Below are positions 9,917 through 64,000 of a stretch of DNA of 64,000 nt, one piece after another (the stretch's first letter is position 1; each line of letters starts with the position of its first letter). The stretch comes from a virus. Where the stretch lies: IMG/VR virus record IMGVR_UViG_3300010388_000228, positions 1 through 64,000 of that record. One strand, written 5' to 3'. The notes below the pieces were generated by a model, which saw only the letters and a program-made list of their open reading frames with translations, searched no databases and was not told the origin of the DNA. Position numbers and translations under genes: made by a program.

Positions 9917-10035
9917 AGAATACTATTGATTCGCTCCCAATAGTATTCTACACTATAGTATAGATTCGCTCCCTATACTATAGTAAACTCTCAAAGCTCA
10001 CTTTAGATTCGCTCCCTAAAGTGAGCTTTTTCTTT
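9917..10035 (+). ncRNA. three-hairpin RNA element with identical AUUCGCUCC loops; third hairpin doubles as intrinsic terminator
   Basis: Perfect stems 9917-9949 (12 bp), 9952-9984 (12 bp) and 9993-10029 (14 bp); U tract after the third. Confidence 0.6.
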
Positions 10036-10429
10036 ATATTAAAAACCAGACCCTGTACTCTGGTACTAGGTCGGTCTATAAACGTGAAAAACGGCAAAAA
10101 CATGGTGTTGCAGACCGCTAACGACGCGGGCCAAAAACCAAAGATGAGTCTTAAATATAGGAGCCTGGACTAGTAATAGGCCCCGCTGTGCAGTTATACT
10201 CATATGCGTATATGCGTGTATTATTACACTATAGTGTATCATAGCGTAAAATGCGCTGTAATGCGTTACACGCGCTGGTGCGTACTTATGCTATAGTATG
10301 TTATGCGCTTATAATATAACACGCTACACACGCACATACAAGCGAGCGTATACGAGTAACAAAGTTCTTTACAGACCCCGCTGTATATGTTATACTATGT
10401 ACTTACTAACAACAACTGCGGAGCACGCA

Positions 10430-10732: not shown

Positions 10733-11277
10733 TCCGCGCTGCCATTCTCGCTACTATAGTAGTAATGCCGATACATGCGGATGTGTATCGGTATACAGGA
10801 GCAGATGGGAGAGTTTGGTTAACTGATCATCCACAAGAGATCGCAACATCTGCCAAACCTACTACTATAGTAAAGAAACCGGAGACTCGCCCACTAACTC
10901 GATGGGAGATCAACCACTATGTTCATGCTGCGGCAAAGAAGTATGGAGTGGATGAGAAGTTAGTTCATGCAGTCATTAAAACGGAAAGTACATATCGTAA
11001 ATCGGCTGTAAGTAAGAAGGGAGCAGCTGGATTGATGCAGCTGATGCCAGCAACGGCAGAGCGATTTGGTGTGAGTGATCGGATGGATGAGCGGCAGAAC
11101 ATAGAGGGCGGAGTCCGGTTCCTAAGGTTCTTGCTCGATACATTCAAAGATACCAAACTAGCGGTTGCCGGATACAATGCGGGCGAGCATGCGGTAATGC
11201 GACATAAGAACCGGATTCCACCATATCCGGAAACCCGAAACTATGTGGGATTGGTAATGGCGGCATACACTGAATAA
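10729..11277 (+). CDS. secreted soluble lytic transglycosylase (SLT) with DUF4124-like N-terminus
   Basis: Signal peptide; ADVYRYTGADG..TDHP; AVIKTES, GAAGLMQLMP, AGYNAGE, PPYPETRNYV. Confidence 0.9.
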   Translation: MIRAAILATIVVMPIHADVYRYTGADGRVWLTDHPQEIATSAKPTTIVKKPETRPLTRWEINHYVHAAAKKYGVDEKLVHAVIKTESTYRKSAVSKKGAAGLMQLMPATAERFGVSDRMDERQNIEGGVRFLRFLLDTFKDTKLAVAGYNAGEHAVMRHKNRIPPYPETRNYVGLVMAAYTE

Positions 11278-11507
11278 CAAACCAGTTGACAACCAATGCG
11301 TAGTTTGCTATACTATGCGTGTACTATATATAAGAGGAGCAAGCAATAATGTCGTTTTTATATAATTTCGCAGTGTTTACTACTATAGTATTACTAAGTG
11401 TAATCGCGTTATTGAACTGGTATGAGTTAGTGATTTAAAAAGTTCTTTACAAACCAAAGTTAGTTTGTTATACTATACACTTACTAACAAGCAATGCGGA
11501 GCGTACA

Positions 11508-11696
11508 ATGTATAAACTAACACTTACTACCACAAGCAAGCATCCAGTAATTATTTACTTTGGTGCCAACGGTATCGCAGTATCACCAAGTGACATGTTC
11601 ACTTATGTGTATGTAAATGGCAACAGCTGGCAAACAGAAGAATCAGCTGAGTCGATCGAAGCGCGTATTGATGCAGCGATTGCGGCACGTGGTTAA
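11508..11696 (+). CDS. small hypothetical early protein
   Basis: Own promoter and GGAGCG RBS; similar to 789..983. Confidence 0.65.
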   Translation: MYKLTLTTTSKHPVIIYFGANGIAVSPSDMFTYVYVNGNSWQTEESAESIEARIDAAIAARG

Positions 11697-11804
11697 CAAA
11701 CTACTTGCAAAATGTTTTAAAACGTGTATAATATGTAACAAGTTAGCAAGCAAGCTAACTAGCAGTAAAACAACTTAACTTTTCTATTTTTTGGAGCGTA
11801 CAAT

Positions 11805-12167
11805 ATGTCAAAAGTAATCACAGTTGCAACAGTTGAAAAAACATTCACATTCGCTGGCGTTAGCGACCTCAACGGTGTGTACAAAATCCGCTTTGCTAAC
11901 AGCGCGGATCGTGTGAAAGTGTTACACCGCAATGGGCACTTAGACATTCGCTTAGTAGCGTTAGCGGGTGCAATGACTAAATATGAAGCAGCAATGGCAA
12001 TCAAAGACTTAGAGGAGTTCGCGGACTTAGATGCACAACAAGCATTCGATGACTTCTTTAGCAAAACTGCTATCGTTACTCCCAAAACTGCTGTAATTGA
12101 GACAGCAGATGATGTAGACTATGCGGCAGCAGCAGATGCATTGGAAGCTGAGTTAGCGACAGCATAA
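11805..12167 (+). CDS. hypothetical early protein, family A
   Basis: GVSD..YKIRF..H.DIR..FAD..AQ.A...F.SK shared with 17662..18039. Confidence 0.7.
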   Translation: MSKVITVATVEKTFTFAGVSDLNGVYKIRFANSADRVKVLHRNGHLDIRLVALAGAMTKYEAAMAIKDLEEFADLDAQQAFDDFFSKTAIVTPKTAVIETADDVDYAAAADALEAELATA

Positions 12168-12175
12168 GGTAATAG

Positions 12176-12206
12176 GCCCCGCTGTATGTATATGTGCGGC
12201 GGGGCG
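12176..12206 (+). terminator. hairpin built on the GCCCCGCTG motif
   Basis: gccccgctg...cggcggggc pairing right after the stop codon. Confidence 0.4.
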
Positions 12207-12231
12207 ACTTAACTACTTAGTTGGAGTTGTT

Positions 12232-12405
12232 ATGGATACTATAGAGCAAAACTTAACAGAGCAATTGGCAATACTTCAAACACGCAGTGCGACCTTAATG
12301 CAAGAGCGCAAAGAGTTCTTTGCTGAAATGTATGAAGATTGGGAAAACGAGATAGATGATGCATATGAACCAATAGCCTGGTACGACATGTGGGACGATG
12401 AGTAA
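12232..12405 (+). CDS. small acidic protein (57 aa; not in ORF track)
   Basis: GGAG RBS; MDTIEQNL...EDWENEIDDAYEPIAWYDMWDDE. Confidence 0.55.
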   Translation: MDTIEQNLTEQLAILQTRSATLMQERKEFFAEMYEDWENEIDDAYEPIAWYDMWDDE

Positions 12406-12552
12406 CCGGCAATCCGACCGACCTCCCCCCCCCCCGGATAGACCCCGCTGCTTACACACGCGTGTGCGGGCGCGTATGATGTATAAAGTTCTTTACAAAC
12501 CATGTGTTATACTGTATAATATGTTTTTTAACTACTACAGCGTGCTACTACT

Positions 12553-12810
12553 ATGTCAAAATACAATGTATCATTAAACGCCAAACTTAAAGCATACAAG
12601 CAAGCCGAAGCGGAGGCAGCTGCCCAAAAGCCAAAGCGCCTAGTATCAATAGAGACCGCCCGCCAAATCCGTTCGCTCCGCTCTCAATTGAGTGCCGCGC
12701 GTGTCAACTCTAAGCAGTATCTTGAGATCAACACACAGCTAAACCGTATATACATTGCGGAGATGGCACTTGATGAAGCGTTTGAGAAAGCGCAGTTAGA
12801 AGCCGCATAG
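12553..12810 (+). CDS. hypothetical early protein, family B
   Basis: NSKQYLEIN..N..Y..E shared with 13732..13920; own promoter. Confidence 0.65.
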   Translation: MSKYNVSLNAKLKAYKQAEAEAAAQKPKRLVSIETARQIRSLRSQLSAARVNSKQYLEINTQLNRIYIAEMALDEAFEKAQLEAA

Positions 12811-12903
12811 TATAGATATACCGGCAGGCGGTTAACAAAGTTCTTTACAAACCGCCTGCTATGCTTTATAATATACACTTACTAAACAACAACGGAGCGT
12901 CAA

Positions 12904-13251
12904 ATGCACCCATATAACCAAGCTAAAATTAACATGTCAGCTGCCAATAATGCTATTATTGCGCAGTACAATTGGACTATCAGTAAAACTACAGCAATAT
13001 ATATGGTTGCTGATTATGAGTTTGCTGAAGAATGGGCGCAGGACTTTATGACACATCCAGCACACATTGACAAAAAGATTAAAGCGATATACAATGCTTT
13101 TCCGGACAAACACGAGCTATGGAACAATAACACGTTGAAAGCGCAGTTAGTAGAGAAAGTTGAAGCGCATACGGACTTAGTGGATTACATTAACGGGCTG
13201 TTACGAAACGCTGAGTTCGTTGAGTGCTGTGCGCAAGGTGAGGGGTTGTAG
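12904..13251 (+). CDS. hypothetical early protein, family C
   Basis: AD..FAEEW..HPAHI..LWN..VE.H.DLVDYIN..AEFV shared with 16050..16397. Confidence 0.7.
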   Translation: MHPYNQAKINMSAANNAIIAQYNWTISKTTAIYMVADYEFAEEWAQDFMTHPAHIDKKIKAIYNAFPDKHELWNNNTLKAQLVEKVEAHTDLVDYINGLLRNAEFVECCAQGEGL

Positions 13252-13264
13252 AGTAAAATACCAT

Positions 13265-13344
13265 TTGCTAACTTGCGTTTAGTTTGCTATACTATGTGCA
13301 AGTTAGCAATAACGCTAACTTATAACTATAGCGTGTAAACTACT
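13265..13344 (+). promoter_or_regulatory. repeated promoter cassette: TTGCTA-17-TATACT, AAGTTAGC-aataac-GCTAACTT palindrome, AGCGTG leader
   Basis: Near-identical copies at about 13649, 13944, 14395, 15974, 16492 and 17472; variants at about 11705 and reversed at about 20045-20100. Confidence 0.8.
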
Positions 13345-13626
13345 ATGCCAAAAACTGCTAACCCTGTTGTAATCGCTACACTCAAACAATGTGTTACTAA
13401 CTTCAATGCTCAAGCAAAAGAGTATTTCGAAACAACGGATCGCGATCTCAGTGATCTTGGGTTGTTGTGTACTGAAGATGCCAAGTACAACCAAAAGTGT
13501 TTAATCAGTTATATGAAGACTGGCGACTACGATGAGTTAATCGGTAAGTTGGTATATCAGGATACTCTACCAAGAGAACGAGTTATCTATGCAATGATGG
13601 AAGCCGGCTGCTATCCGGAGGTGTGA
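13345..13626 (+). CDS. hypothetical early protein
   Basis: ORF directly downstream of a promoter cassette. Confidence 0.65.
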   Translation: MPKTANPVVIATLKQCVTNFNAQAKEYFETTDRDLSDLGLLCTEDAKYNQKCLISYMKTGDYDELIGKLVYQDTLPRERVIYAMMEAGCYPEV

Positions 13627-13731
13627 AAATATAGATCAAAAGTATCAGTTGCTAACCTGTGCTTAGTTTGCTATACTATGTGCAAGTTAGCAATAACGCT
13701 AACTTTTAACACTACTACAGCGTACACTACT

Positions 13732-13920
13732 ATGTCAAAAATACTCTATGTTACCTCAGCAGCGCGTATCAAATACATTAACATGCTCACACGCCAATTG
13801 CGTACTAAACCAAAAAACAGCAAACCATATCTCGAGTTAAACGATGCAATCAACAAGTTCTACAAAGAGGAGCTTGAAGCAGCTGATGCAGTAGCACGCG
13901 GCGAGCTTGTGGAGCTATAG
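13732..13920 (+). CDS. hypothetical early protein, family B
   Basis: Start at ATG 13732 after the cassette; NSKPYLELN. Confidence 0.65.
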   Translation: MSKILYVTSAARIKYINMLTRQLRTKPKNSKPYLELNDAINKFYKEELEAADAVARGELVEL

Positions 13921-14022
13921 GTTAAAGCTTCGTAAAAAACCATTTGCTAACTTGCGCTTAGTTTGCTATAATATGTGCAAGTTAGCAATAACGCTAACTT
14001 ATAACTTTACAGCGTGTATATT

Positions 14023-14373
14023 ATGCAAAATAAAATTACTAATATTATTAAAAACGCAGCAGCATCGCACAACCTCGAAGTCACAATTACACACAACTGG
14101 AGCAATACGGGCACCATGTTTATCACTAAAGCGAACAGTATGGAAACAGTGACTAAGCTGGACTTTTGGTTCTATCAAAACTATGTAACGTTCGATGCTC
14201 GCACACGCGGTGTAACGATTAATCCAAAAGCTAAAGCATTGGATTACAGTGAAACAATTGACTACGTGAATCACGTGGAGTTTGAAAACTTTATGCAACG
14301 ATTAGTTGGCAGCTGGGGTGCTGTTGAGTTGCAAGACTTAAGCGATGTAATTGACTCATATGCGGTAGCATAG
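14023..14373 (+). CDS. hypothetical early protein
   Basis: ATG 14023 after the cassette and AGCGTG. Confidence 0.65.
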   Translation: MQNKITNIIKNAAASHNLEVTITHNWSNTGTMFITKANSMETVTKLDFWFYQNYVTFDARTRGVTINPKAKALDYSETIDYVNHVEFENFMQRLVGSWGAVELQDLSDVIDSYAVA

Positions 14374-14482
14374 AGCAAGCGGTAAACAAAACGCTTGCAA
14401 TGTTGTAAGCGTTTTGCTATACTATGTGCAAGTTAGCAATGTTGCTAACTTGTTAAACAAACTACTACACTGGAGCGCCACA

Positions 14483-14890
14483 ATGCAAACTACTACTAAA
14501 TTACTTAAAAACACAGCTAACGCTATTGCTCACGTTGTATCACACACATCGGACGAAGTCAAACTTCCAGCTTATGTGTGCTTGCAGGATATTAAGCGTA
14601 GAGATGCAGAGAATGTGGAATTGTACAGTGCGGTACAGTTGCATGTTGGGGAAGCGTTGTTAGCGCATATTGAGGATGTGTATATACAGAGCAACGTGTA
14701 TTTGAACTACCGCAAAAAGTTTATTGCCGTTAAAGTCAACAGTCCCAAGTTTACTGATAAAGCAAGTTTAAGAGCAGCGAAGTTAGATATATGGGCAGAG
14801 GCTAATGGAATTGTAATTGAGCATACGAGACACGGCAACATGGTGTACAGAGCTAACATGGATGCACTGGATGCCATAGCAGCCGCATAG
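14483..14890 (+). CDS. hypothetical early protein
   Basis: ATG 14483 after GGAGCG. Confidence 0.65.
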   Translation: MQTTTKLLKNTANAIAHVVSHTSDEVKLPAYVCLQDIKRRDAENVELYSAVQLHVGEALLAHIEDVYIQSNVYLNYRKKFIAVKVNSPKFTDKASLRAAKLDIWAEANGIVIEHTRHGNMVYRANMDALDAIAAA

Positions 14891-15001
14891 GCCCCGCTGC
14901 TTATACACGCGCATTGCAGGCACAATGGTTAATAAACTGCTTGCAATGCGCGTACAATAGTGTATAATATACACAACTTAAACAAATAGCGTGTAAAAAT
15001 T

Positions 15002-15157
15002 ATGCAAGTAAAAAACATTAAACTGATACACACATATTGCAGTACGTGTGGGGACTTGAGTGTACTACACAACATGGAAACAGATGAGCTCGAACCATGT
15101 TGGGCTTGTGAGCAAACTGAAGCAAATGACTTTAACGATAAAGCGGAGCGTGTATAA
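15002..15157 (+). CDS. small zinc-ribbon-like protein (51 aa; not in ORF track)
   Basis: CSTC...CWAC; promoter TTGCAA..TATAAT; TAATG overlap with next gene. Confidence 0.6.
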   Translation: MQVKNIKLIHTYCSTCGDLSVLHNMETDELEPCWACEQTEANDFNDKAERV

Positions 15158-15423
15158 TGGCAACAGGTATTATGAACAACGAAGTTAAACAACAACAAGC
15201 AGCGGAGTTAGCGGCTCGCGTGGCAATGTTCTTAGCAACCGGTGGACAGATTAAAACGACTAAAACAGGACGCAGAGGGCGTACGACAGTATCACAAGTT
15301 CATACTCCCCGCGTTGTGGTAGTAGAGAAACAACGATACACATGGGAAGAGGCAAAACGGGAGCTAGCGGAGATTGGCTTACTGACTAAGCCAGTACAAT
15401 CGGCAATCAAAGCACGCCAATAG
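15157..15423 (+). CDS. hypothetical early protein, family D
   Basis: V..FL..GG....K and W..A...L shared with 16574..16864. Confidence 0.65.
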   Translation: MATGIMNNEVKQQQAAELAARVAMFLATGGQIKTTKTGRRGRTTVSQVHTPRVVVVEKQRYTWEEAKRELAEIGLLTKPVQSAIKARQ

Positions 15424-15489
15424 ACCCCGCTGCTTACACGCGCGTATAATCGAGTACGCGCGTATTACAACAAATAATCGGAGCACATC

Positions 15490-15861
15490 ATGTTAATCCA
15501 AAAAGTATTGAAAAACCATATTAAGTTTTTAAACGATGTACAGGCTAAACTCGAAGACATTCACAACACCATTGCATTCAATACAGAGGTAACCCGGTCA
15601 CTATCGAATGGCTTCCATATGCTCAAAGAGAAGGAGCGTAAGACAGTTTCAAAAGTATTGCTAAATGATGTATCGAATGTAATTGGTTATAAGGAAGCTG
15701 ATGTAATTGATCTTGTGGCACAACTACATTACACGAGCGCAATGGGCATAGTGAGCACAACGGAAAGCGACTTATACGATTTAGTGTATTGCTTGGATAT
15801 TCCATTAATGATCGAGCGTATGAAACAACGATATGCTGAAGTAGAGAGTATGATGGCATAA
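15490..15861 (+). CDS. hypothetical early protein
   Basis: GGAGC RBS; 123-aa ORF. Confidence 0.6.
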   Translation: MLIQKVLKNHIKFLNDVQAKLEDIHNTIAFNTEVTRSLSNGFHMLKEKERKTVSKVLLNDVSNVIGYKEADVIDLVAQLHYTSAMGIVSTTESDLYDLVYCLDIPLMIERMKQRYAEVESMMA

Positions 15862-15872
15862 CTGATATATCG

Positions 15873-15888
15873 GGCACAGGGAAGTGCC
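15873..15888 (+). promoter_or_regulatory. CsrA/RsmA-type hairpin ggcac-AGGGAA-gtgcc
   Basis: Matches CANGGANG with a hexaloop on a 5-bp stem. Confidence 0.6.
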
Positions 15889-16049
15889 GATTAACCGGGC
15901 AACCTGACAGACCGACCAACCACCCCCCCCCCCCGGGTTGCCCACTAGTGGTAATAATACCAAAATAAAATGCTTTACAAAATGTTTTAATGTGCTATAC
16001 TATGTGCAAGTTAGCAATAACGCTAACTTATAACTATAGCGTGTAAATT

Positions 16050-16397
16050 ATGCAAAATACTACTACAGCAACAAACAACAAAATTAACGTATTAAACGCA
16101 AACACAAGCAAGTACCCGCTAACTCCCAGCGTAACAAGTACAGTGTTTATGTTGGCGGACGAGGGCTATGCGGAGGAGTGGGGCACTACTGAGCATCCGG
16201 TGCACATAATTGCGCAAATGGTAACAATATACAACAGACATTATGAAGCACATGATGACTTGTGGAACGATGATGCTGCGGTACAAGCGTTTATAGAGGA
16301 AGTAGAGGAGCACGAGGACTTAGTGGATTACATAAACAATGTGGCATTACAGGACGCTGAGTTTGTGTATAACTGCTTGTGTGGATCGGGACTATAA
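16050..16397 (+). CDS. hypothetical early protein, family C (acidic)
   Basis: Paralog of 12904..13251. Confidence 0.7.
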   Translation: MQNTTTATNNKINVLNANTSKYPLTPSVTSTVFMLADEGYAEEWGTTEHPVHIIAQMVTIYNRHYEAHDDLWNDDAAVQAFIEEVEEHEDLVDYINNVALQDAEFVYNCLCGSGL

Positions 16398-16406
16398 CGG
16401 ATACAA

Positions 16407-16424
16407 CGGCACAAGGAAGTGCCG
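16407..16424 (+). promoter_or_regulatory. CsrA/RsmA-type hairpin cggcac-AAGGAA-gtgccg
   Basis: ACANGGANGU consensus, 6-bp stem. Confidence 0.6.
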
Positions 16425-16573
16425 CTTTAATCGGCCCCGCTGTTTATGTGTACGCGTGTGGGCGCATGGTTAATAAAACTAAAAATAATGCTTTACTTAC
16501 CAGTTTTACTTTGCTATACTATGTGCAAGTTAGCAATAACGCTAACTTATAACTTTACAGCGTGCTTACTACT

Positions 16574-16864
16574 ATGTTTAATAATACAAACAAACAAACA
16601 AAAAACGCAGCAACAAACGCAGCAGTACAAGCGTTTTTGGACAACGGCGGTACAGTGACACGCCGCAAAAGCAATGTACCGGAAGTCAGTGCACCACCTG
16701 CCAACTACTTTACAAGTACTGATGCGCCGAAAGCAGTTGACAAATTGGACAGCTGGGAAGTAGCACTTGCAAAGCTAACAACGATATTACCGGGAAGCGG
16801 CATTAAGGTAGTATGGAACGACGGACGTGCGGCAAGCAGTGTAGAGGAACTGTACGGACTATAA
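16574..16864 (+). CDS. hypothetical early protein, family D
   Basis: ATG 16574; VQAFLDNGGTV. Confidence 0.65.
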   Translation: MFNNTNKQTKNAATNAAVQAFLDNGGTVTRRKSNVPEVSAPPANYFTSTDAPKAVDKLDSWEVALAKLTTILPGSGIKVVWNDGRAASSVEELYGL

Positions 16865-16874
16865 GGTAACACAG

Positions 16875-16890
16875 AGCACATGGACGTGCT
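16875..16890 (+). promoter_or_regulatory. CsrA/RsmA-type hairpin agcac-ATGGAC-gtgct
   Basis: ACANGGANGU consensus. Confidence 0.6.
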
Positions 16891-17134
16891 GAACAACCGA
16901 GCAATCGGACAGACCGACCAACCACCCCCCCCCCGGAGAAGACGATGAACCGAATTAACCCATTACTAGCCGCTACGTTCAACACCCAAACAGATCGTAG
17001 AGAGTCGGAACGCAGACGCACTGAGCAGTTAAGAGAGCAACGAGCTGCAAAGAACACTGCGAAGTATGGTAACAACGACTTTGCGAGTGTGTTGGCAAGT
17101 GCATTAGTTGGCTATAGATAAAACGAACATAACG

Positions 17135-17150
17135 GGCGCAAGGACGCGCC
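17135..17150 (+). promoter_or_regulatory. CsrA/RsmA-type hairpin ggcgc-AAGGAC-gcgcc
   Basis: CANGGANG with a covarying stem. Confidence 0.55.
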
Positions 17151-17172
17151 GAAATAACCGGAGCAAAGAATA

Positions 17173-17370
17173 ATGGGCAAATTATATATATTGAAAGTGA
17201 TGATGTTTATTGGGGCGCAGGAAATTGATAACACATTCATATATCCATCAGAAGCCGAGTGCCAAGCGCACCGAGCAATGGAAGTACAGTTACTGGACAA
17301 GCTGAATGAATCGGTGCTCACCGGATACGCGACACGCTGTGATGTTGCTGGTGACAGTGATATGAGATAA
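17173..17370 (+). CDS. small hypothetical protein
   Basis: GGAGC RBS; 65 aa. Confidence 0.55.
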   Translation: MGKLYILKVMMFIGAQEIDNTFIYPSEAECQAHRAMEVQLLDKLNESVLTGYATRCDVAGDSDMR

Positions 17371-17661
17371 AAGAGGAAGTGTGAGTGCAGTGGTAGCGCG
17401 AGCAATGAGCTTGCGCTATTATAACACAAACAAATGCAAAATGCAAGCGGTAAATTAAATAAAAATAATGCTTGCAATGTTTTAAAAATAGCGTATAATG
17501 TAACACAAGTTAGCAATAACGCTAACTTTTAACACTACTACAGCGTGCTAATTATGCAAAATAAAACTAAAAAAACACTTGCTTTTACTGTAAAAAAAGT
17601 GTATAATGTGCAACATAAATTAAACTTAGTAACAAACAACAACACAAGTGGAGCGAACACT

Positions 17662-18039
17662 ATGAACACAACAACAAACACAACACCAGTTTTTGCACAA
17701 GTAGTAACAGCAAGCTCAAAAGCCAACAGCAAATTAGTACAATGCGTGGGTGTTAGCGATCACGCAAAGCTGGGCTACAAAATACGCTTTAGCGGCAAGC
17801 CCGAAGCAACGGCGCGTGTTACTACGCTAATTGCAACAAAATTACACACGGACATCCGCTTTATAAACTTAGCACAAATTAAAACGGAAATTGAGGCAGC
17901 TGTAGAATTAGAAGGGCATCCAAACTTTGCAGATGACAACGCGCAAATGGCTATTGCGGCGTTTTTAAGCAAGCATAACGCAACGGAAGTACAGGCAGCA
18001 AGAGACGCGTATGCGGAACTGTTAGCACAGGCGGCATAA
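17662..18039 (+). CDS. hypothetical early protein, family A
   Basis: ATG 17662 after GGAGCGAA; GVSDH..GYKIRF. Confidence 0.7.
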   Translation: MNTTTNTTPVFAQVVTASSKANSKLVQCVGVSDHAKLGYKIRFSGKPEATARVTTLIATKLHTDIRFINLAQIKTEIEAAVELEGHPNFADDNAQMAIAAFLSKHNATEVQAARDAYAELLAQAA

Positions 18040-18051
18040 GCAAGTACACAG

Positions 18052-18067
18052 GGCACAGGGACGTGCC
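18052..18067 (+). promoter_or_regulatory. CsrA/RsmA-type hairpin ggcac-AGGGAC-gtgcc
   Basis: ACANGGANGU consensus just after the stop codon. Confidence 0.6.
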
Positions 18068-18151
18068 GCAACTGGAAAAAATAACACTTGCAATTAGTTT
18101 TAAAACGTGTATAATATACACATACTTTAACAAAACAGCGTGCTAACTACA

Positions 18152-18367
18152 ATGCAAACTAAACAACAAACAGTACACAATTTTTTAAACAAACAAGCGC
18201 AAACAGCTCACCACACCGTGAGCCCCGAGACCGGGACTGCCGCCCCGGGTTTGTTTAATACAGTAATGACAGCTGTGGTTACAACAATACAGTTTATAAT
18301 ATTGGCAATGCCATTTGCAATCGCAATTGCCGGCTTTGGTGGCGCGTTTGACGCATTGGTAAAATAA
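18152..18367 (+). CDS. small membrane protein
   Basis: ATG 18152 after promoter and AGCGTG; C-terminal hydrophobic helix. Confidence 0.6.
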   Translation: MQTKQQTVHNFLNKQAQTAHHTVSPETGTAAPGLFNTVMTAVVTTIQFIILAMPFAIAIAGFGGAFDALVK

Positions 18368-18458
18368 ATAAATATAACGCTTGCATATAGTGTAACACTA
18401 TGCTATACTATATGCAAGTTAAGTAATAACACTTAACTACTAACTGGAGATAGACAAC

Positions 18459-18533
18459 ATGGCAAGAAGATCCGACAGAGCAAAGACAGCAGGACAGAAA
18501 GCGGTACGTCGATACATTAGACGCAACAAATAA
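18459..18533 (+). CDS. 24-aa Arg/Lys-rich peptide (not in ORF track)
   Basis: Own promoter TTGCAT..TATACT, GGAGA RBS, MARRSDRAKTAGQKAVRRYIRRNK. Confidence 0.5.
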   Translation: MARRSDRAKTAGQKAVRRYIRRNK

Positions 18534-18952
18534 AAGGCCCCGCTGCTAGGTATTAGCGGCCCATGTTAGGATATAGGTAGTAGTATATCCTAACAACCAA
18601 ACACATTTTGCATTGTGTTACCCCGACCCTGTATTCATTATGCGATGATACAGGGTTTTTTATTGACCATCGCGTCAACCGAATAACCGGACCTAGTGGA
18701 CTTAAACTAACTGAACAATCGGATCTCCATCTATTTCTGTAACCATCTGCCACCTGCAAATCCGCAGGCCCCGCTGTAAGGTATTGTGGTTTGTTGCTTA
18801 TAAGTTTTAAACACGTTTAACAAGTACAATTTACAATGCTAAAATTTGCGTTTTAACGCGTGTACAATGCGCGTTTATATACTAAGCAATGCAACAATAG
18901 CAGTACAAAATTTTAAACGCTTACAACGCAAATACGCAATGGCAAAAGAAAC

Positions 18953-19497
18953 TTGACATTCCATATTAGAGGTGTTATACTATAGTGGTATGACCGACCT
19001 AATCGCAGGCCCCGCTGTAGCATATTAGGGGTTGACAGGAGGTGGGGAAAGGTGGTGGGGAAAGGTGGTATAATATAACATTGGCTCCGCCGAACCTCGG
19101 TTATATTTTTTAAAAAAATGCTTGCATTGTGTATAGTATAATGCTATAATATATTTTTTTAACAACACAGCGTATAATACAATGAATACATACTATTACG
19201 GTTACATATATAAACGGAACGCATACGCAATGTCCGGCGCGTTCGTTACCCTGCTTAGCCTTACGCGTAAGGAACATGCGGCGAGGTTGACTGGTAAGAT
19301 AAAAAGGTTAAAAGGAATAGTTGACTAAGGTGGGGATAGGTGCTATACTAATATAGCACCTGTTGCCGGTACAGTGAGACTACAGTGGCTGGACAGTTAT
19401 GGAAGGTGTGGTGCGTTACCGGATCGGGCCGTACGGCCCCGCTATAGCGTGTGCTATAGTATGTATATATTATAGCACGTTTAATGTGCAATGTCAA
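18953..19497. promoter_or_regulatory. cluster of consensus sigma70 promoters with little coding content
   Basis: + strand: TTGACA-17-TATACT (18953), TTGCAT-17-TATAAT (19122), TTGACT-17-TATACT (19321); - strand: TTGACA-17-TATAAT (19497-19469). Confidence 0.7.
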
Positions 19498-19550
19498 ATA
19501 AAAAACAAACAAAAAAAGTGCAACCCTTTCGGATTGCACTGTTTTGGTGC

Positions 19551-19952
19551 TTAGTTAGGTATTAAACATAATCCTGCATCAATAACGTGCTGTTTTGCTG
19601 CATCAATTTCCCCTTGTTGGTGCTTGTTAATGAACAATTCTAGTGCATTAACATGGTTATCACTAAAAGGCGTTCTATCGCTCGTTATTAGTGCATAGTT
19701 AGCGACTAATGTTAATGCGGCTTGTAATTGTGTACATGGCGCACTAATTTTGTACATTAACACTTCTGTATGCCCACATTGTGTGCTTTGCAAGTGACTT
19801 GCACGTTTGCTAACGTTTGCATCAGCACTAAAACGAGTTGCATACCCTATTGTATCTTTTGGGTGCTTGCTTACACCGAACCCTTGCACTAATTTTGCGC
19901 TGTTAGGTGTGCTTGTTGTTACTGCGTAGCTAATTGCTTGTTGTGCTTGCAT
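19551..19952 (-). CDS. hypothetical early protein, family A (divergent)
   Basis: NSAKLVQGFGVSKH..GYATRF..HTEV resembles 17662..18039; GGGGA RBS; reversed promoter cassette upstream. Confidence 0.65.
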   Translation of the reverse strand: MQAQQAISYAVTTSTPNSAKLVQGFGVSKHPKDTIGYATRFSADANVSKRASHLQSTQCGHTEVLMYKISAPCTQLQAALTLVANYALITSDRTPFSDNHVNALELFINKHQQGEIDAAKQHVIDAGLCLIPN

Positions 19953-20473
19953 AATAATTCCCCTTTTTTGTGCGGGTTAAATAAACATTAAGCGCGTATG
20001 CGCACGCTTAATGCGCGTGTTGTACTGCTACTAAGTTTTTAAAAAGCTAAGTTATTTGCTAACTTGTGTACAATTATACAGTATATAAAATAAAAAGCAA
20101 GCGTTTTTTTATTTTTTTTTTTACTTTTATTAAAAATAAATTGCTTGCAATGTATAAAAAAACGTGTTATAATAGTGTAACGCAATACACAATGCCCCGG
20201 GGGTGGGGGGTGTATATATACAACAATTTGTTGTTTTTTTACAACAACGCAACCTTTTTCTCTCTTTTCTCTAAAGTCTAAAAACACCTCTAAAAAGTCA
20301 CCATAGGTGCAAAATCACCACCGAGAATCTGTAAGTACTTCTTTCTAATTTTTTGCGCAGCAAAAAATTACATACCGCAGGACCCTTTTCGGACTATAAA
20401 AACAGTTCGGCCCGTAACTATCTCTACAGTGGAGTTACAGTGATATATACAGTATAGTCACAGTGGAGTCACA

Positions 20474-20680
20474 ATGGAACAATATAACAACCCCCCGGTC
20501 CCGAACAGCGTAGTCCCGGTTCGAGTAGAGTCTAGTAACAGTAGTTCTAGCCATGAGAGCCATCTAGCCAGCTTAGTACACCGTCTAGTAGAAACGGTAG
20601 AAAAGCAGCAAAGGCAAATACAAAGGCTGGAATCTACCATAGCAGAAGTTAGGGCAACCATAAACAGACTCAATGGTTAG
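20474..20680 (+). CDS. small coiled-coil hypothetical protein
   Basis: GGAG RBS; heptad-like C-terminus. Confidence 0.5.
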   Translation: MEQYNNPPVPNSVVPVRVESSNSSSSHESHLASLVHRLVETVEKQQRQIQRLESTIAEVRATINRLNG

Positions 20681-60565: not shown

Positions 60566-60996
60566 AAGATCAAATTATATGTAGCGGTGCATTAATCTAT
60601 TCACAAGCTACACATAGATTCTTACTAATTCAAAAGTCGTCTGGCAAGCATCAAGGTACATGGGGACTAGTAGGTGGAACTAATTTAGTTAATGAAAATC
60701 CATGGCAAGGGTTAGTTAGAGAAATAGAAGAAGAGATTGGGTTTCTTCCAGACATTAAAAAAACACTACCGTTAGAAAAATTTGTATCTAACGATAGTGT
60801 CTTTAATTTTCATACATATTTTTGTTTAGTTAACAACGAATTTGTGCCAACATTAAGCGATGAACATATTGCCTGGGGTTGGTTTGATATAACTGTGTTA
60901 CCTAAACCAATTCATCGTGGCTTAAATCTTAGCTTGCGTAACAAAGTTATTCAAACTAAGATTCAAACATTAATCGATATTATTGACTCTTTATAA
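60547..60996 (+). CDS. NUDIX hydrolase
   Basis: WGLVGG.....E.......REIEEEIG Nudix box; LSDEH..WGW. Confidence 0.85.
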   Translation: MAIGVLKDQIICSGALIYSQATHRFLLIQKSSGKHQGTWGLVGGTNLVNENPWQGLVREIEEEIGFLPDIKKTLPLEKFVSNDSVFNFHTYFCLVNNEFVPTLSDEHIAWGWFDITVLPKPIHRGLNLSLRNKVIQTKIQTLIDIIDSL

Positions 60997-62470
60997 CAGA
61001 GTCAATCCACTGTTTATGATCTACAGATTGCTGCTCGATATATTTTTTAAGTTCTTTAATTTGTTGCGATGCACTAGCAGCATGATCGTATAGCCATCTA
61101 GATTTTAAAAAGTTTTCTAAATTATCAGTATTTTTAAATAATCCATACCCATATGCAATGCAATTAAAATCTGCAGACTCAAACATGTCTGCAGCAGTTT
61201 TATTAAAATTGTAAATAGTTAACGGAGTACTATCAATTAAGGTTATTATATCTTTAATTTCGTCTGGAGTATTATCAGTTAAATATTGCCAAAATGAAGA
61301 ATCTGTTCGGCCAGTATTATAAAAAAATCGTATATATTTAAACGTATTTTTATATATTGTAGTCATTACTGTGTTATAATGATTTATTATTTGAGTAGAT
61401 GTAATACCGTCAAACACCTTTGTAATTAAATCTATTTGTGTAAATGCATGATGTATGTTAGTTGCTTCGAGAGGTTCAACAAACCCACTCGACAATCCAA
61501 TTGCAACACAATTGCCTACCCAATGCTCTGCATTATATCCGCTCTTAAATTTAATAATACGATCAGACGTTAAATTAACATTGTATTTTTCTTTTAACCA
61601 TTTATCAAATTCAAATCGAGCCTCGTCATCTGTTGTAAATTTACTGCTATATACATACCCAGTACCATGTCGATTTGATAACGGCACATCAAGAATCCAC
61701 CCATTTTTAGTTGCCTCTGCAGTCGTATATGGCGGGATATAATCAAAATCCTTAAACAGAGGAAACGGTATTGCTCTATCGGTTGGTAACTGATCAGATA
61801 AATCAACCCAATCAACTGCTAAGTGTTTAAACAACACTTGGTCTAACCCGGATGCATCTATAAATAAGTCAGCTGAATATTCTTGCCTATTTGCTAATTT
61901 GATAGAGGTAATAGATCTATTAGTAACATGTACATCGGTGACATTTCCGTCGATAATTGTAATTTTATCTTGAAATACAAATTCGACATATTTACTAAGA
62001 AGACTTGCATCTACATGTAATGCATGTCGATATGATAAATTGTCAGTTGACGGTAATACGTTATTATTAAAATAAAATTTACCATAGGTATAACCAGAAT
62101 CGTATTGGTTATGTAAAATATCAAATGCGTCTACTGCATTAAAATCAACAAGTACCGGATTAACTAATGATAACGATTCGTTATGTGGAAAACTGTGAAA
62201 CCATTCGCTACCGTCGTGTGTCCAATTTTTAAACTTTAAACCAAGTTTAATCGTTGCATTACAATTTCGAATTAAATCAATTGTAGAAATACCCACTGTT
62301 TTTAAATAATTGTCAAATAGTGGCGTTAGACTCTCGCCTACGCCAATACCAGGTTTACTATGGTCGTATAGCATAGTAACATCAGCACGATCTCCCCAGT
62401 AAGATTTGAAATAGCTAGCAGCCATAGCACCGGCTGTTCCGCCACCGACTACAATAATTTTAAATGTCAT
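60980..62470 (-). CDS. tryptophan halogenase-family flavoprotein
   Basis: VVGGGTAG, IGVGES, ATIKLG, ADLFIDASG, GYVYSS, GFVEPLEAT. Confidence 0.85.
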   Translation of the reverse strand: MTFKIIVVGGGTAGAMAASYFKSYWGDRADVTMLYDHSKPGIGVGESLTPLFDNYLKTVGISTIDLIRNCNATIKLGLKFKNWTHDGSEWFHSFPHNESLSLVNPVLVDFNAVDAFDILHNQYDSGYTYGKFYFNNNVLPSTDNLSYRHALHVDASLLSKYVEFVFQDKITIIDGNVTDVHVTNRSITSIKLANRQEYSADLFIDASGLDQVLFKHLAVDWVDLSDQLPTDRAIPFPLFKDFDYIPPYTTAEATKNGWILDVPLSNRHGTGYVYSSKFTTDDEARFEFDKWLKEKYNVNLTSDRIIKFKSGYNAEHWVGNCVAIGLSSGFVEPLEATNIHHAFTQIDLITKVFDGITSTQIINHYNTVMTTIYKNTFKYIRFFYNTGRTDSSFWQYLTDNTPDEIKDIITLIDSTPLTIYNFNKTAADMFESADFNCIAYGYGLFKNTDNLENFLKSRWLYDHAASASQQIKELKKYIEQQSVDHKQWIDSVIKSQ

Positions 62471-63092
62471 AGTTATCCTCCTCTATAGTGTATGTAAAGT
62501 TTATAATCACTCGTCTATCAACATCATTAGGTGTTGCACTTGCATGATAATGTTCACCGTTAAAACCTAATAGTCTATTTCGACGCGGGGCTACCTTATG
62601 AAGTATAGTTTCGTTACCTAAAAAATTTTCTTTAAAATAACTAAAACTTGCATCTGCAAAGTCTTCATATTTTGACTTATCTAAATTAAAATCATACTTT
62701 TCATTATAAATTACAGTCGGTGAATCTGAATCAATCAGATATAAAATACCTACTTGATGCGGATCTGGCATATCGATATGAGGATCATTAACATATTGGC
62801 CTGTTGTTCTTGGTTGTAATACTATTCGAACTCGAATTATTTCTTTTACAGTATGTCCGAGTTTATCAATTAAGTCAAGAAGTATAGGCTGTAACATTTC
62901 ACCTATTTGATTATGTGGTTGACTGTTAGTAATTGGATAGTGTGTAAAATTAAACGGGTGCGGATTTGTGCTATTGAGTTTATCAAAAGAATACGTAATT
63001 GGGCTATAATGCCATGGAAAATCATAATCTAAAATTTTTCTTTCTAGCAATGCAATTATTGCAGGTGATACCGCATTATCGATTATTTTCAT
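62460..63092 (-). CDS. 2OG-Fe(II) oxygenase
   Basis: FPW, PHID, ILYL.DSD..T, HYHAS.TP..RRVIINF. Confidence 0.8.
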   Translation of the reverse strand: MKIIDNAVSPAIIALLERKILDYDFPWHYSPITYSFDKLNSTNPHPFNFTHYPITNSQPHNQIGEMLQPILLDLIDKLGHTVKEIIRVRIVLQPRTTGQYVNDPHIDMPDPHQVGILYLIDSDSPTVIYNEKYDFNLDKSKYEDFADASFSYFKENFLGNETILHKVAPRRNRLLGFNGEHYHASATPNDVDRRVIINFTYTIEEDNYDI

Positions 63093-63240
63093 AGAGTTGC
63101 TAACCTCACAAGTCCTGCAATGCTATTTGGTAGATTTACGTTGTAATTTAACATATAGTGTCTCCTTTTTTTACTTATCAGAATACTATGTTTGTGAAAA
63201 TCAATTCTGATAAGTAACTTCATATTAAAAAGGAATAACT

Positions 63241-64000
63241 ATGCCTAAAAAAATTGAAAAAGTAGTGATTGTAGGTGGTGGATCAGCTGGATGGATGAGT
63301 GCTGCTACATTGATTAATTTTTTTCCTAATAAACAAATTGTTGTTGTTGAAAGTCCAGATGTTCCTGCAGTAGGAGTCGGTGAAAGTACACTTGGTGGGA
63401 TACGACACTGGATGTATGCGTTAGGAATTAATGAAAAAGACTTCATGCAGTATACAAATGCATCTTATAAAATGAGTATTAAGTTTACTGATTTTTATAA
63501 TAAAGATGCTGGTTCGTTTCATTACCCATTCGGAAGTCCGAGATTATTTGATACTGAAACCGGATTAGCGGAATGGCAAGCAAAAAAAGCGTTGTATCCC
63601 GATACGCCAGTTGATGATTATTGTAGAAATTATTATTCAACAATGCCGTTAATCGAAAACAACAAATTTAGCAATAACGATAATGGTGAATTTGATACTT
63701 TTAGACCTGATCTAGATGTTGCGTATCATTTTGAAGCATCGTTATTTGCTAGTTGGTTACGTGACAAATATTGTATTCCCCGTGGAGTAATTCATATTTT
63801 AGAAAACGTATCTAACATTACTACATCAGACATTGGAATAGAAAGTTTAACATTAGCTAACGGTGATACTGTTATTGCCGATTTGTTTGTTGATTGTACT
63901 GGATGGAAAAGTATGTTGCTAGGGGATGCGCTTGATGAACCGTTTACTTCATACGAAGATATCCTTCCAAATAACCGAGCATGGGCAGTTCAAGTACCAT
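63241..64000 (+). CDS. second tryptophan halogenase-family flavoprotein (runs off the window end)
   Basis: AGGA RBS; MPKKIEKVVIVGGGSAGWMSAA, VGVGEST, ASYKMSIKF, AYHF, ADLFVDCTG. Confidence 0.85.
   Translation, partial: MPKKIEKVVIVGGGSAGWMSAATLINFFPNKQIVVVESPDVPAVGVGESTLGGIRHWMYALGINEKDFMQYTNASYKMSIKFTDFYNKDAGSFHYPFGSPRLFDTETGLAEWQAKKALYPDTPVDDYCRNYYSTMPLIENNKFSNNDNGEFDTFRPDLDVAYHFEASLFASWLRDKYCIPRGVIHILENVSNITTSDIGIESLTLANGDTVIADLFVDCTGWKSMLLGDALDEPFTSYEDILPNNRAWAVQVP

Follow-up and report, generated by a model that had tools for sequence, protein, structure and literature searches.

Promoter-early stem-loop (PeSL) cassettes have been described in the T4-type phages RB49 and phi1, and their authors speculated on a stem-loop-binding recombination protein (Arbiol et al. 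2010, PMC2839356). In these hyperplastic regions, strong sigma-70 early promoters and intergenic stem-loops flank small orphan genes, and the cassettes recombine, shuffling the genes. The PeSL stem-loops have G-run/C-run stems, terminate efficiently and often overlap the promoter.

High-affinity CsrA/RsmE hairpins, such as the hcnA ribosome-binding-site hairpin (PDB 2JPP), carry GGA in a hexaloop closed by a C-G pair, and the SELEX consensus is RUACARGGAUGU. The contact consensus from RsmE-hcnA is (A/U)CANGGANG(U/A), typically presented in a penta- or hexaloop (PMC5864733, PMC6849547). Such sites lie in 5' leaders, and the sponges CsrB, RsmZ, RsmY and RsmX are dedicated short non-coding RNAs with many GGA sites. 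The lambda nutR site sits behind cro. Its boxB is a hairpin of 15-16 nt with a 5-bp stem and a GNRA-like pentaloop, placed between the stop codon of a small early gene and a Rho-type region, and the N protein is small and arginine-rich.

The locus described here shares features with each of these systems. It lies in the early region of IMG/VR record IMGVR_UViG_3300010388_000228 (98,182 bp), of which positions 1 to 64,000 form the window, the whole stretch of DNA analysed. The virus is an uncultured freshwater giant phage. It is T4-superfamily-like, with a large terminase closest to that of PA5oct, and isolate phages yielded no megablast match to the region. No tRNA was found in a scan of the window, and the sole match to a RegB-like nuclease (PF10715) is spurious and contains stop codons. 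The initial annotation reported five CsrA-type hairpins here, and all five are present with the positions, stems and loops it gave, each on the sense strand and each the minimum-free-energy fold of its own intergenic stretch:

15873..15888, + strand: HP1, 5-bp stem, loop AGGGAA, 11 nt past the stop of ORF 15490-15861
16407..16424, + strand: HP2, 6-bp stem, loop AAGGAA, 9 nt past the stop of ORF 16050-16397
16875..16890, + strand: HP3, 5-bp stem, loop ATGGAC, 10 nt past the stop of ORF 16574-16864
17135..17150, + strand: HP4, 5-bp stem (GGCGC/GCGCC), loop AAGGAC, 13 nt past the stop of the arginine-rich ORF (below)
18052..18067, + strand: HP5, 5-bp stem, loop AGGGAC, 12 nt past the stop of ORF 17662-18039

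A scan of both strands of the record, the genome-wide control that had been proposed, found no further GC-stemmed ANGGAN-hexaloop hairpin. First-order Markov simulations give a chance expectation of 0.07 per record and 0.0075 per early region, against the five observed. Stop codon and hairpin are 9-13 nt apart, so that the placement behind stop codons holds and the proposed range of about 10-20 nt does not. The neighbouring features are as follows:

15904..15935, + strand: C-rich, G-poor tract ending in C13, inside a 10-bp stem, immediately behind HP1
15974..16001, + strand: sigma-70-type early promoter of the cassette after HP1
16433..16442, + strand: GGCCCCGCTG box behind HP2, a unit of a polar repeat found in the early region
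16492..16520, + strand: sigma-70-type early promoter of the cassette after HP2
16906..16935, + strand: the C-rich tract in its second copy, downstream of HP3 and ahead of the arginine-rich ORF
16935..16938, + strand: GGAG ribosome-binding site of the arginine-rich ORF, 44 nt past HP3, a second GGA site
16945..17121, + strand: small arginine-rich ORF, 58 aa, present at all 12 loci behind the universal hairpin copy
17160..17163, + strand: GGAG ribosome-binding site of ORF 17173-17370, 9 nt past HP4
17173..17370, + strand: conserved 65-aa ORF, part of the module with the hairpin and the arginine-rich ORF, used as anchor for locating relatives
18088..18115, + strand: sigma-70-type early promoter of the cassette after HP5

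A promoter follows only HP1, HP2 and HP5 (the -35 box lies 20 nt past HP5), and the early 3'UTR placement in the initial annotation is right for these three. HP3 and HP4 are intercistronic, upstream of the GGAG sites of ORFs 16945-17121 and 17173-17370 by 44 and 9 nt. With stems of 4-6 bp and no T run behind any of the five, none has the GC-rich stem plus U tract of an intrinsic terminator. The tract at 15904..15935 looks like a Rho-loading (rut) site.

The region has much of the PeSL architecture. The repeat families D5, D8, D11 and D13, together with a promoter scan, mark strong sigma-70-like promoters with AT-rich upstream sequence between small ORFs without a family, and cassette content varies among relatives. 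In contigs from other lake and estuary samples the sequence changes partner at the 3' ends of hairpins: 16424 is joined to 15972, 16892 is joined to 16510, and 16889 is a loose end. The last codons ahead of several copies are alike, which suggests spread by duplication. Unlike PeSL stem-loops, the hairpins have a short GCAC stem without a U tract, a set distance from the stop codon and a loop constrained in sequence, and they also occur within operons and in unrelated phages.

Relatives were found with a degenerate pattern of the leader hairpin and with an alignment of the 65-aa ORF; searches with an exact 22-mer of the leader hairpin and with ORF 15490-15861 found none. The 65-aa ORF has 24 homologue clusters, with genomic contexts recovered for part of them. 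Its predicted beta-beta-alpha-beta fold is confident and had no PDB match in a fold search. This phage and 11 related contigs together hold 23 distinct copies of the hairpin, all on the sense strand. The flanks cannot be aligned, and the apex CAC-ANGGAH-GUG is kept throughout. The loop constancy claimed for the five copies thus extends to all 23, as an A-N-G-G-A-H hexaloop: positions 1, 3, 4 and 5 are invariant, position 2 is free (G 8, A 2, T 6, C 7) and position 6 is C in 16 copies, A in 5, T in 2 and never G. At least 7-8 loop substitutions have occurred, all at positions 2 and 6, a pattern with a probability of about (1/3)^8 under equal rates; the aligned set omits the one departure, a terminator with the loop AGTGAT in a relative. 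Compensatory changes, also claimed, are real in the lower stem, where the observed covariation score is reached by 0 of 500 shuffles and the pair in alignment columns 7 and 22 is AU in 7, GC in 6, UG in 1 and unpaired in 8 of 22 distinct rows. They do not extend to the top pairs, which hardly vary from GCAC/GUGC. A single G-U wobble occurs, on the sense strand.

Copy number ranges from 1 to 5 per phage, with one copy in the complete 372-kb relative. HP3 is the copy kept in all relatives. This universal copy precedes the arginine-rich ORF in all 12 loci, which were all retrieved via a neighbouring gene, and a GGAG site lies 6-44 nt downstream (6-29 nt in the relatives). HP4 was seen in this phage only. 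The complete relative has true terminators at two equivalent places, and the one at the HP1 position is the ordinary AGTGAT-loop terminator, which indicates that the GGA is dispensable there. A 10-bp intrinsic terminator on the sense strand of L176 has one copy as its tip.

The GCAC-stem, ANGGAH-loop hairpin also occurs in at least four phage groups without nucleotide similarity to this one; reversed-pattern controls gave 0. In these groups it is found 2-4 times, clustered and co-oriented, on the sense strand and 4-21 nt past stop codons. The DNA polymerase of one carrier is closest to those of phages of Stenotrophomonas and Pseudoxanthomonas. The recurrence of the same hairpin in unrelated phages favours a reader supplied by the host over one private to the phage.

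The likeness to a high-affinity CsrA/RsmE hexaloop site, as first proposed, is exact. The consensus is fitted by 22 of 23 copies, HP4 being the exception with a G...C outer pair, and the one loop position that varies freely is the N of the consensus. A second GGA near a ribosome-binding site, within roughly 10-60 nt, accompanies HP3, HP4 and the universal copy and is absent for HP1, HP2 and HP5, which precede promoters. Unlike described CsrA/RsmE sites, the phage hairpins lie behind stop codons and also keep stem pairs 3 and 4 more strictly than the CsrA consensus demands, and binding here is predicted from sequence.

We tentatively favour the hairpin as a cis-acting docking site for a CsrA-type protein, a local control element of the shuffling cassettes, and consider this reading plausible. 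The hairpin would be the stem-loop part of a PeSL-like cassette border, co-transcribed with the preceding gene and placed just outside the terminating ribosome. Selection keeps the apical 12 nt, which would be a sequence-specific docking site acting on its own transcript. At HP3, HP4 and the universal copy, the hairpin and the GGAG site downstream would form a two-site geometry through which a CsrA-type dimer may repress translation. At HP1, HP2 and HP5, the bound hairpin may act as a 3'-end cap or modulate the C-rich tract that follows, which resembles a Rho site. As reader we regard a CsrA-family protein from the host as most likely. The analysis shows that the hairpins exist, are conserved, are under selection in the loop, keep their position, mark cassette borders and recur in unrelated phages; that they are transcribed, that a protein binds them, which protein reads them and what this does to regulation are what we infer here. 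CsrA docking is supported by the consensus fit, the invariant loop positions, the covariation, the presence of the universal copy in every locus and the recurrence. It is weakened by the over-conserved stem pairs, the AGTGAT terminator and the host evidence, and, the match having been drawn from a very large scan, a number of chance look-alikes are to be expected.

The initial annotation had pointed to a CsrA-encoding, probably gammaproteobacterial, host. The check for csrA on the phage side (PF02599) found none in this record, in G001, in the complete relative (G003) or in three unrelated carriers that are near-complete. Evidence on the host is limited to a permuted tmRNA in the complete relative, typed beta_tmRNA with 90.4 bits against a gathering score of 84, and it hints at a betaproteobacterial host. 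Phage tmRNA type usually tracks host lineage, with one documented exception (PMC9004378), and in a survey of CsrA only two species of Betaproteobacteria had it (PMC7366521). The tmRNA type and this survey argue against a CsrA in the host. No beta_tmRNA scored above the cut-off in a class-level sample of 151 genomes, and BLAST of the phage tmRNA against 400 genomes gave no match. A halogenase gene used as host probe retrieved only MAG contigs with mixed labels, which are probably mis-binned phage.

It is possible, though doubtful, that the GCAC-stem/ANGGAH-loop hairpin is an uncatalogued post-stop-codon RNA element of unrelated aquatic phages that, in hosts lacking CsrA, is read by an undescribed protein with CsrA-like loop specificity. 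Such a protein could be the 58-aa arginine-rich protein, forming a boxB/N-like pair in a T4-type giant phage, or a new RNA-binding protein of the host.

With a phage-encoded reader, the hairpin would be the operator of the arginine-rich protein, which would autoregulate its translation or, like lambda N, permit read-through of the C-rich and terminator-like elements. Like nutR/boxB, the hairpins are short with 5-bp stems and lie past the stops of small early genes, ahead of C-rich or terminator-like sequence, and the terminator-tip copy in L176 also fits. The arginine-rich ORF stays beside the hairpin in 12 of 12 loci despite cassette shuffling, although this adjacency may be plain synteny, all 12 loci having been retrieved via the neighbouring gene. 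Four arginines are invariant in its protein, which is predicted with modest confidence (pLDDT 67) as a single long helix. The alignment of this ORF is diverse. A reader of this kind needs no host CsrA, in keeping with the beta-type tmRNA. The ORF has no family in Pfam or PHROG and, unlike N, no detectable homology; the loop is an ANGGAH hexaloop, not GNRA-like, and no boxA-like element was seen, nor any conserved flank of that type in the alignment. The ORFs that follow the hairpin in unrelated phages are not arginine-rich. On balance a phage-encoded reader is unlikely.

A passive stem-loop, serving as 3'-end stabiliser, weak attenuator or recombination joint, with its loop kept by descent, gene conversion or folding, is suggested by the PeSL architecture of promoters, adjacent stem-loops and small orphan genes (PMC2839356). 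The partner changes at hairpin 3' ends and the similar last codons, a sign of duplication, agree with it. It does not readily account for loop substitutions confined to two positions, or for an apex that is fixed between unalignable flanks and recurs in otherwise dissimilar phages, and a stem of 4-6 bp that lacks a U tract terminates poorly. We do not think it likely.

The reader could instead be some other host factor, such as an RNA-binding protein or RNase not yet described whose loop preference is like that of CsrA, in hosts lacking CsrA. It would explain the hairpin in unrelated phages without csrA, and it fits the beta-type host clue and the conservation of stem pairs 3 and 4. The match to the CsrA consensus would have to be put down to chance or convergence, and we know of no host factor of that kind. 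Such a reader is improbable.

The hairpin could also act at the DNA level, where a recombination or replication protein would recognise it at cassette borders, either as a cruciform or as a hairpin in single-stranded DNA. Module borders do coincide with hairpins, the PeSL authors' speculation runs the same way, and uniform orientation could follow from the co-orientation of cassettes. The loop, however, is asymmetric and always on the sense strand, unrelated phages included. The sense-strand G-U wobble, the sense-strand terminator in L176 and the fixed distance from stop codons, which points to a link with translation, also make a DNA-level element very unlikely.

Four further candidates were rejected. 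The loops are not complementary to the anti-ribosome-binding-site loops of the 9917-10035 RNA. A preQ1-like pseudoknot would need a larger loop, and only two relatives have a downstream complement. A Type I restriction-site look-alike would be avoided by a phage, not conserved, and the pairing of a Shine-Dalgarno mimic is broken by positions 2 and 6.

The distributed sponge of the initial annotation, in which abundant early mRNAs jointly titrate host CsrA, is hardly credible: single hairpins do resemble individual sponge stem-loops, match the high-affinity consensus and lie on transcripts from strong early promoters, but a genome has only 1-5 sites, the complete relative just one, and they lie on separate mRNA segments of about 260-900 nt with one site each, roughly 500 nt from one another, no Rfam Csr/Rsm family matches between 11000 and 20500 at E up to 5, the sole conserved copy is placed like a cis operator, and the host is probably without CsrA.

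We found no paper describing the wiring of phage cassettes to CsrA that the docking-site reading implies. The element is compact, has sharp limits and occurs in several uncultured phages that are unrelated to one another. It refines the PeSL concept in that the stem-loop of a cassette can itself hold sequence information. Should a CsrA-type protein bind it, these phages would wire single cassettes into a global carbon and stress regulator of the host through a portable 16-nt tag. If the host is without CsrA, the strict conservation of the loop would imply a new loop-reading protein.

The window opens a 98,182-bp IMG/VR record, covering its initial 64 kb; this record has 37% G+C and a CheckV completeness of 27%. 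Its large terminase shares 53% identity with the counterpart in the Pseudomonas giant phage PA5oct, and its sheath and helicase genes are phage-typical. Near-identical DNA is present in a freshwater metagenome, and estuary and lake-water runs match in part. A group of three Trp-halogenase-family genes, two 2OG-Fe(II) oxygenases and one carbamoyltransferase (60980-64000 and L182:3241-10655) is clustered amid the virion genes; its nearest copies, at 58% identity, belong to MAG contigs with mixed taxonomic labels. The early region (8.7-20 kb) is made up of small + strand orphan ORFs; a strong sigma-70-type promoter precedes each of them, in many cases with a leader hairpin. The five ANGGAN-loop hairpins of the initial annotation are present there as described, and each is the minimum-energy fold.

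15873, +, HP1: behind ORF 15490-15861; followed by a C-rich tract, then a promoter
16407, +, HP2: behind ORF 16050-16397; followed by a GGCCCCGCTG box, then a promoter
16875, +, HP3: behind ORF 16574-16864; intra-operonic, GGAG ribosome-binding site 44 nt downstream
17135, +, HP4: behind ORF 16945-17121; intra-operonic, GGAG site 9 nt downstream
18052, +, HP5: behind ORF 17662-18039; followed by a promoter, with neither tract nor box in between

They do lie just after stop codons, at a measured 9-13 nt rather than about 10-20 nt, and the early 3'UTR placement holds for HP1, HP2 and HP5, where a promoter comes next, but not for HP3 and HP4, inside an operon. Scanning both strands of the 98 kb identified no further GC-stemmed ANGGAN-hexaloop hairpins; simulated sequences gave an expectation of 0.07 per record and 0.0075 in the early region, against the 5 seen.

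Other elements recur nearby. Promoter, leader and first codons of early ORFs form 80-220-nt stretches devoid of GA, GG, TC and CC (16% of dinucleotide steps overall), including 11692-11783, 13262-13348, 13941-14065, 15961-16115, 16501-16639, 17450-17650, 18076-18208 and 19976-20195, and the hairpins lie just beyond their edges. Genes in these zones lack a Shine-Dalgarno and share the motif ACAGCGTG 8-15 nt upstream of ATG (starts 13346, 13733, 14024, 15002, 16050, 16574, 17555, 18152); early genes outside them have GGAGCG instead. An identical 8-bp leader hairpin (AAGTTAGC, 6-nt loop, GCTAACTT) lies directly 3' of the -10 box in at least six early promoters, and is kept in relatives with different loops. 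The C-rich, G-poor tract has three copies ending in C11-C13.

13300-13321, leader hairpin
13684-13705, leader hairpin
13979-14000, leader hairpin
16008-16029, leader hairpin
16527-16548, leader hairpin
17508-17529, leader hairpin
12414-12435, C-rich tract
15904-15935, C-rich tract
16906-16935, C-rich tract

The tracts are ideal-looking candidate Rho loading sites, and the + strand of their region has no canonical intrinsic terminators. In G003, a complete relative (372,016 bp with terminal repeats, 78% identical and colinear), their places are occupied by intergenic CGGCATTCCGGT and ATATATCGGTCC repeat units, including a 32-nt tandem repeat (L149:9150-9290 and 10260-10360). A polar box, G(G/A)CCCCGCTG, recurs behind early ORFs (starts about 12176, 12442, 14890, 15424, 16433), in some cases forming the 5' arm of a strong hairpin that lacks a U tract. 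The early proteins 15157-15423 and 16574-16864 share a motif that weakly resembles SutA's domain for RNA-polymerase binding (PF20661; E 0.02 and 0.17) and may bind the host polymerase.

A 176-kb contig from a relative, ~80% identical at the nucleotide level, carries four of these hairpins, all in syntenic positions, and no others. Anchoring on the 65-aa ORF 17173-17370 yielded 4 viral and 12 metagenome loci; adding the window brings the total of distinct copies to 23, every one on the sense strand. The anchor protein itself is strongly conserved (24 clusters, 74-97% identity) and is modelled with confidence as beta-beta-alpha-beta (pLDDT 91), with no match in a fold search of the PDB. When the copies are aligned, the apex is CAC-hexaloop-GTG in 22 of 23 (HP4 has CGC/GCG), and the loop invariance noted initially extends to positions 1, 3, 4 and 5 (A, G, G, A) without exception. 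Position 2 varies freely (G 8, A 2, T 6, C 7), and position 6 is C 16, A 5, T 2 and G 0. The compensatory stem changes reappear in the alignment, where the fifth pair covaries (AU 7, GC 6, UG 1), and the structure scores above 500/500 shuffles and every slid control.

The contact sequence published as optimal for RsmE reads (A/U)CANGGANG(U/A); SELEX gave RUACARGGAUGU as consensus, as a rule in a penta- or hexaloop. The proposed fit to a CsrA/RsmE site is borne out, since 22/23 copies agree at all specified positions and the variable ones are consensus N positions. CsrB repeats read CAGGA(U/C/A)G, and a repeat of this type would explain the missing G at position 6. Docking of a CsrA-type protein in cis is our leading, still tentative, reading of the hairpins.

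What 12/12 loci have in common is one copy 6-44 nt upstream of the GGAG site of an Arg-rich ORF (57-61 aa; 16945-17121 in the window). The ORF product, which matches no known family, keeps four Arg unchanged along a helix predicted to be long. G003 has ordinary intrinsic terminators at two equivalent places, with similar stems and loops AGTGAT and TTCG, and a related contig has a 10-bp terminator topped by the hairpin apex.

The hairpin could instead be an operator for the phage Arg-rich protein, which is possible but doubtful. The same GCAC/GCGC-stem ANGGAH hairpin turns up in four or more other phage groups, in clusters of 2-4 with a shared orientation, 4-21 nt downstream of stop codons and in one phage behind large genes. 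Among these carriers (L055 and L098, two contigs, counted as one group) are genomes of 54 kb and 258 kb that are close to complete; no group has nucleotide similarity to the window phage or to another group. Reversed-pattern controls gave 0 hairpins, and no CsrA gene was found in three near-complete carriers among them. This recurrence weakens a reader private to the window phage and favours one supplied by the host.

A passive cassette stem-loop is similarly doubtful. Every one of the loop changes, seven or eight at the least, is confined to two of six positions, a pattern that points to selection acting on the loop's sequence and not to descent alone.

Reading by some other host factor is somewhat less probable again.

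As to the host, ribosome-binding sites are strong (GGAG/AGGA type) and promoters sigma-70-like. G003, with seven tRNAs besides, encodes a permuted tmRNA (242613-243039; L204:2613-3039, minus strand) beyond the part of the genome that the 98-kb record covers, typed beta_tmRNA at 90.4 bits (gathering score 84) and scoring 101.9 bits with the tmRNA_permuted model. The three older Rfam models divide permuted tmRNAs into clade subtypes (PMC11915505), and phage tmRNA lineage mostly tracks host lineage, with one exception known (PMC9004378). A CsrA survey found just two betaproteobacterial species positive (PMC7366521). These two lines, tmRNA type and survey, speak against the suggested CsrA-encoding gammaproteobacterial host and are the chief evidence, indirect, against a host CsrA.

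A DNA-level site is quite improbable. The distributed Csr sponge first proposed is very improbable, with just 1-5 copies per phage scattered across separate mRNAs, a single copy in G003 (plus one nearby in-ORF AGGAC pentaloop) and no match to the Csr/Rsm Rfam models over 11000-20500 at E up to 5.

The hairpins stand in an early region whose architecture matches that of the promoter-early stem-loop (PeSL) cassettes of T4-type phages. In contigs of other samples, the point where the sequence changes partner coincides exactly with a hairpin 3' end, at the joints 16424->15972 and 16892->16510; so does the loose end 16889. The element is a PeSL-type cassette stem-loop bearing a CsrA-type loop.
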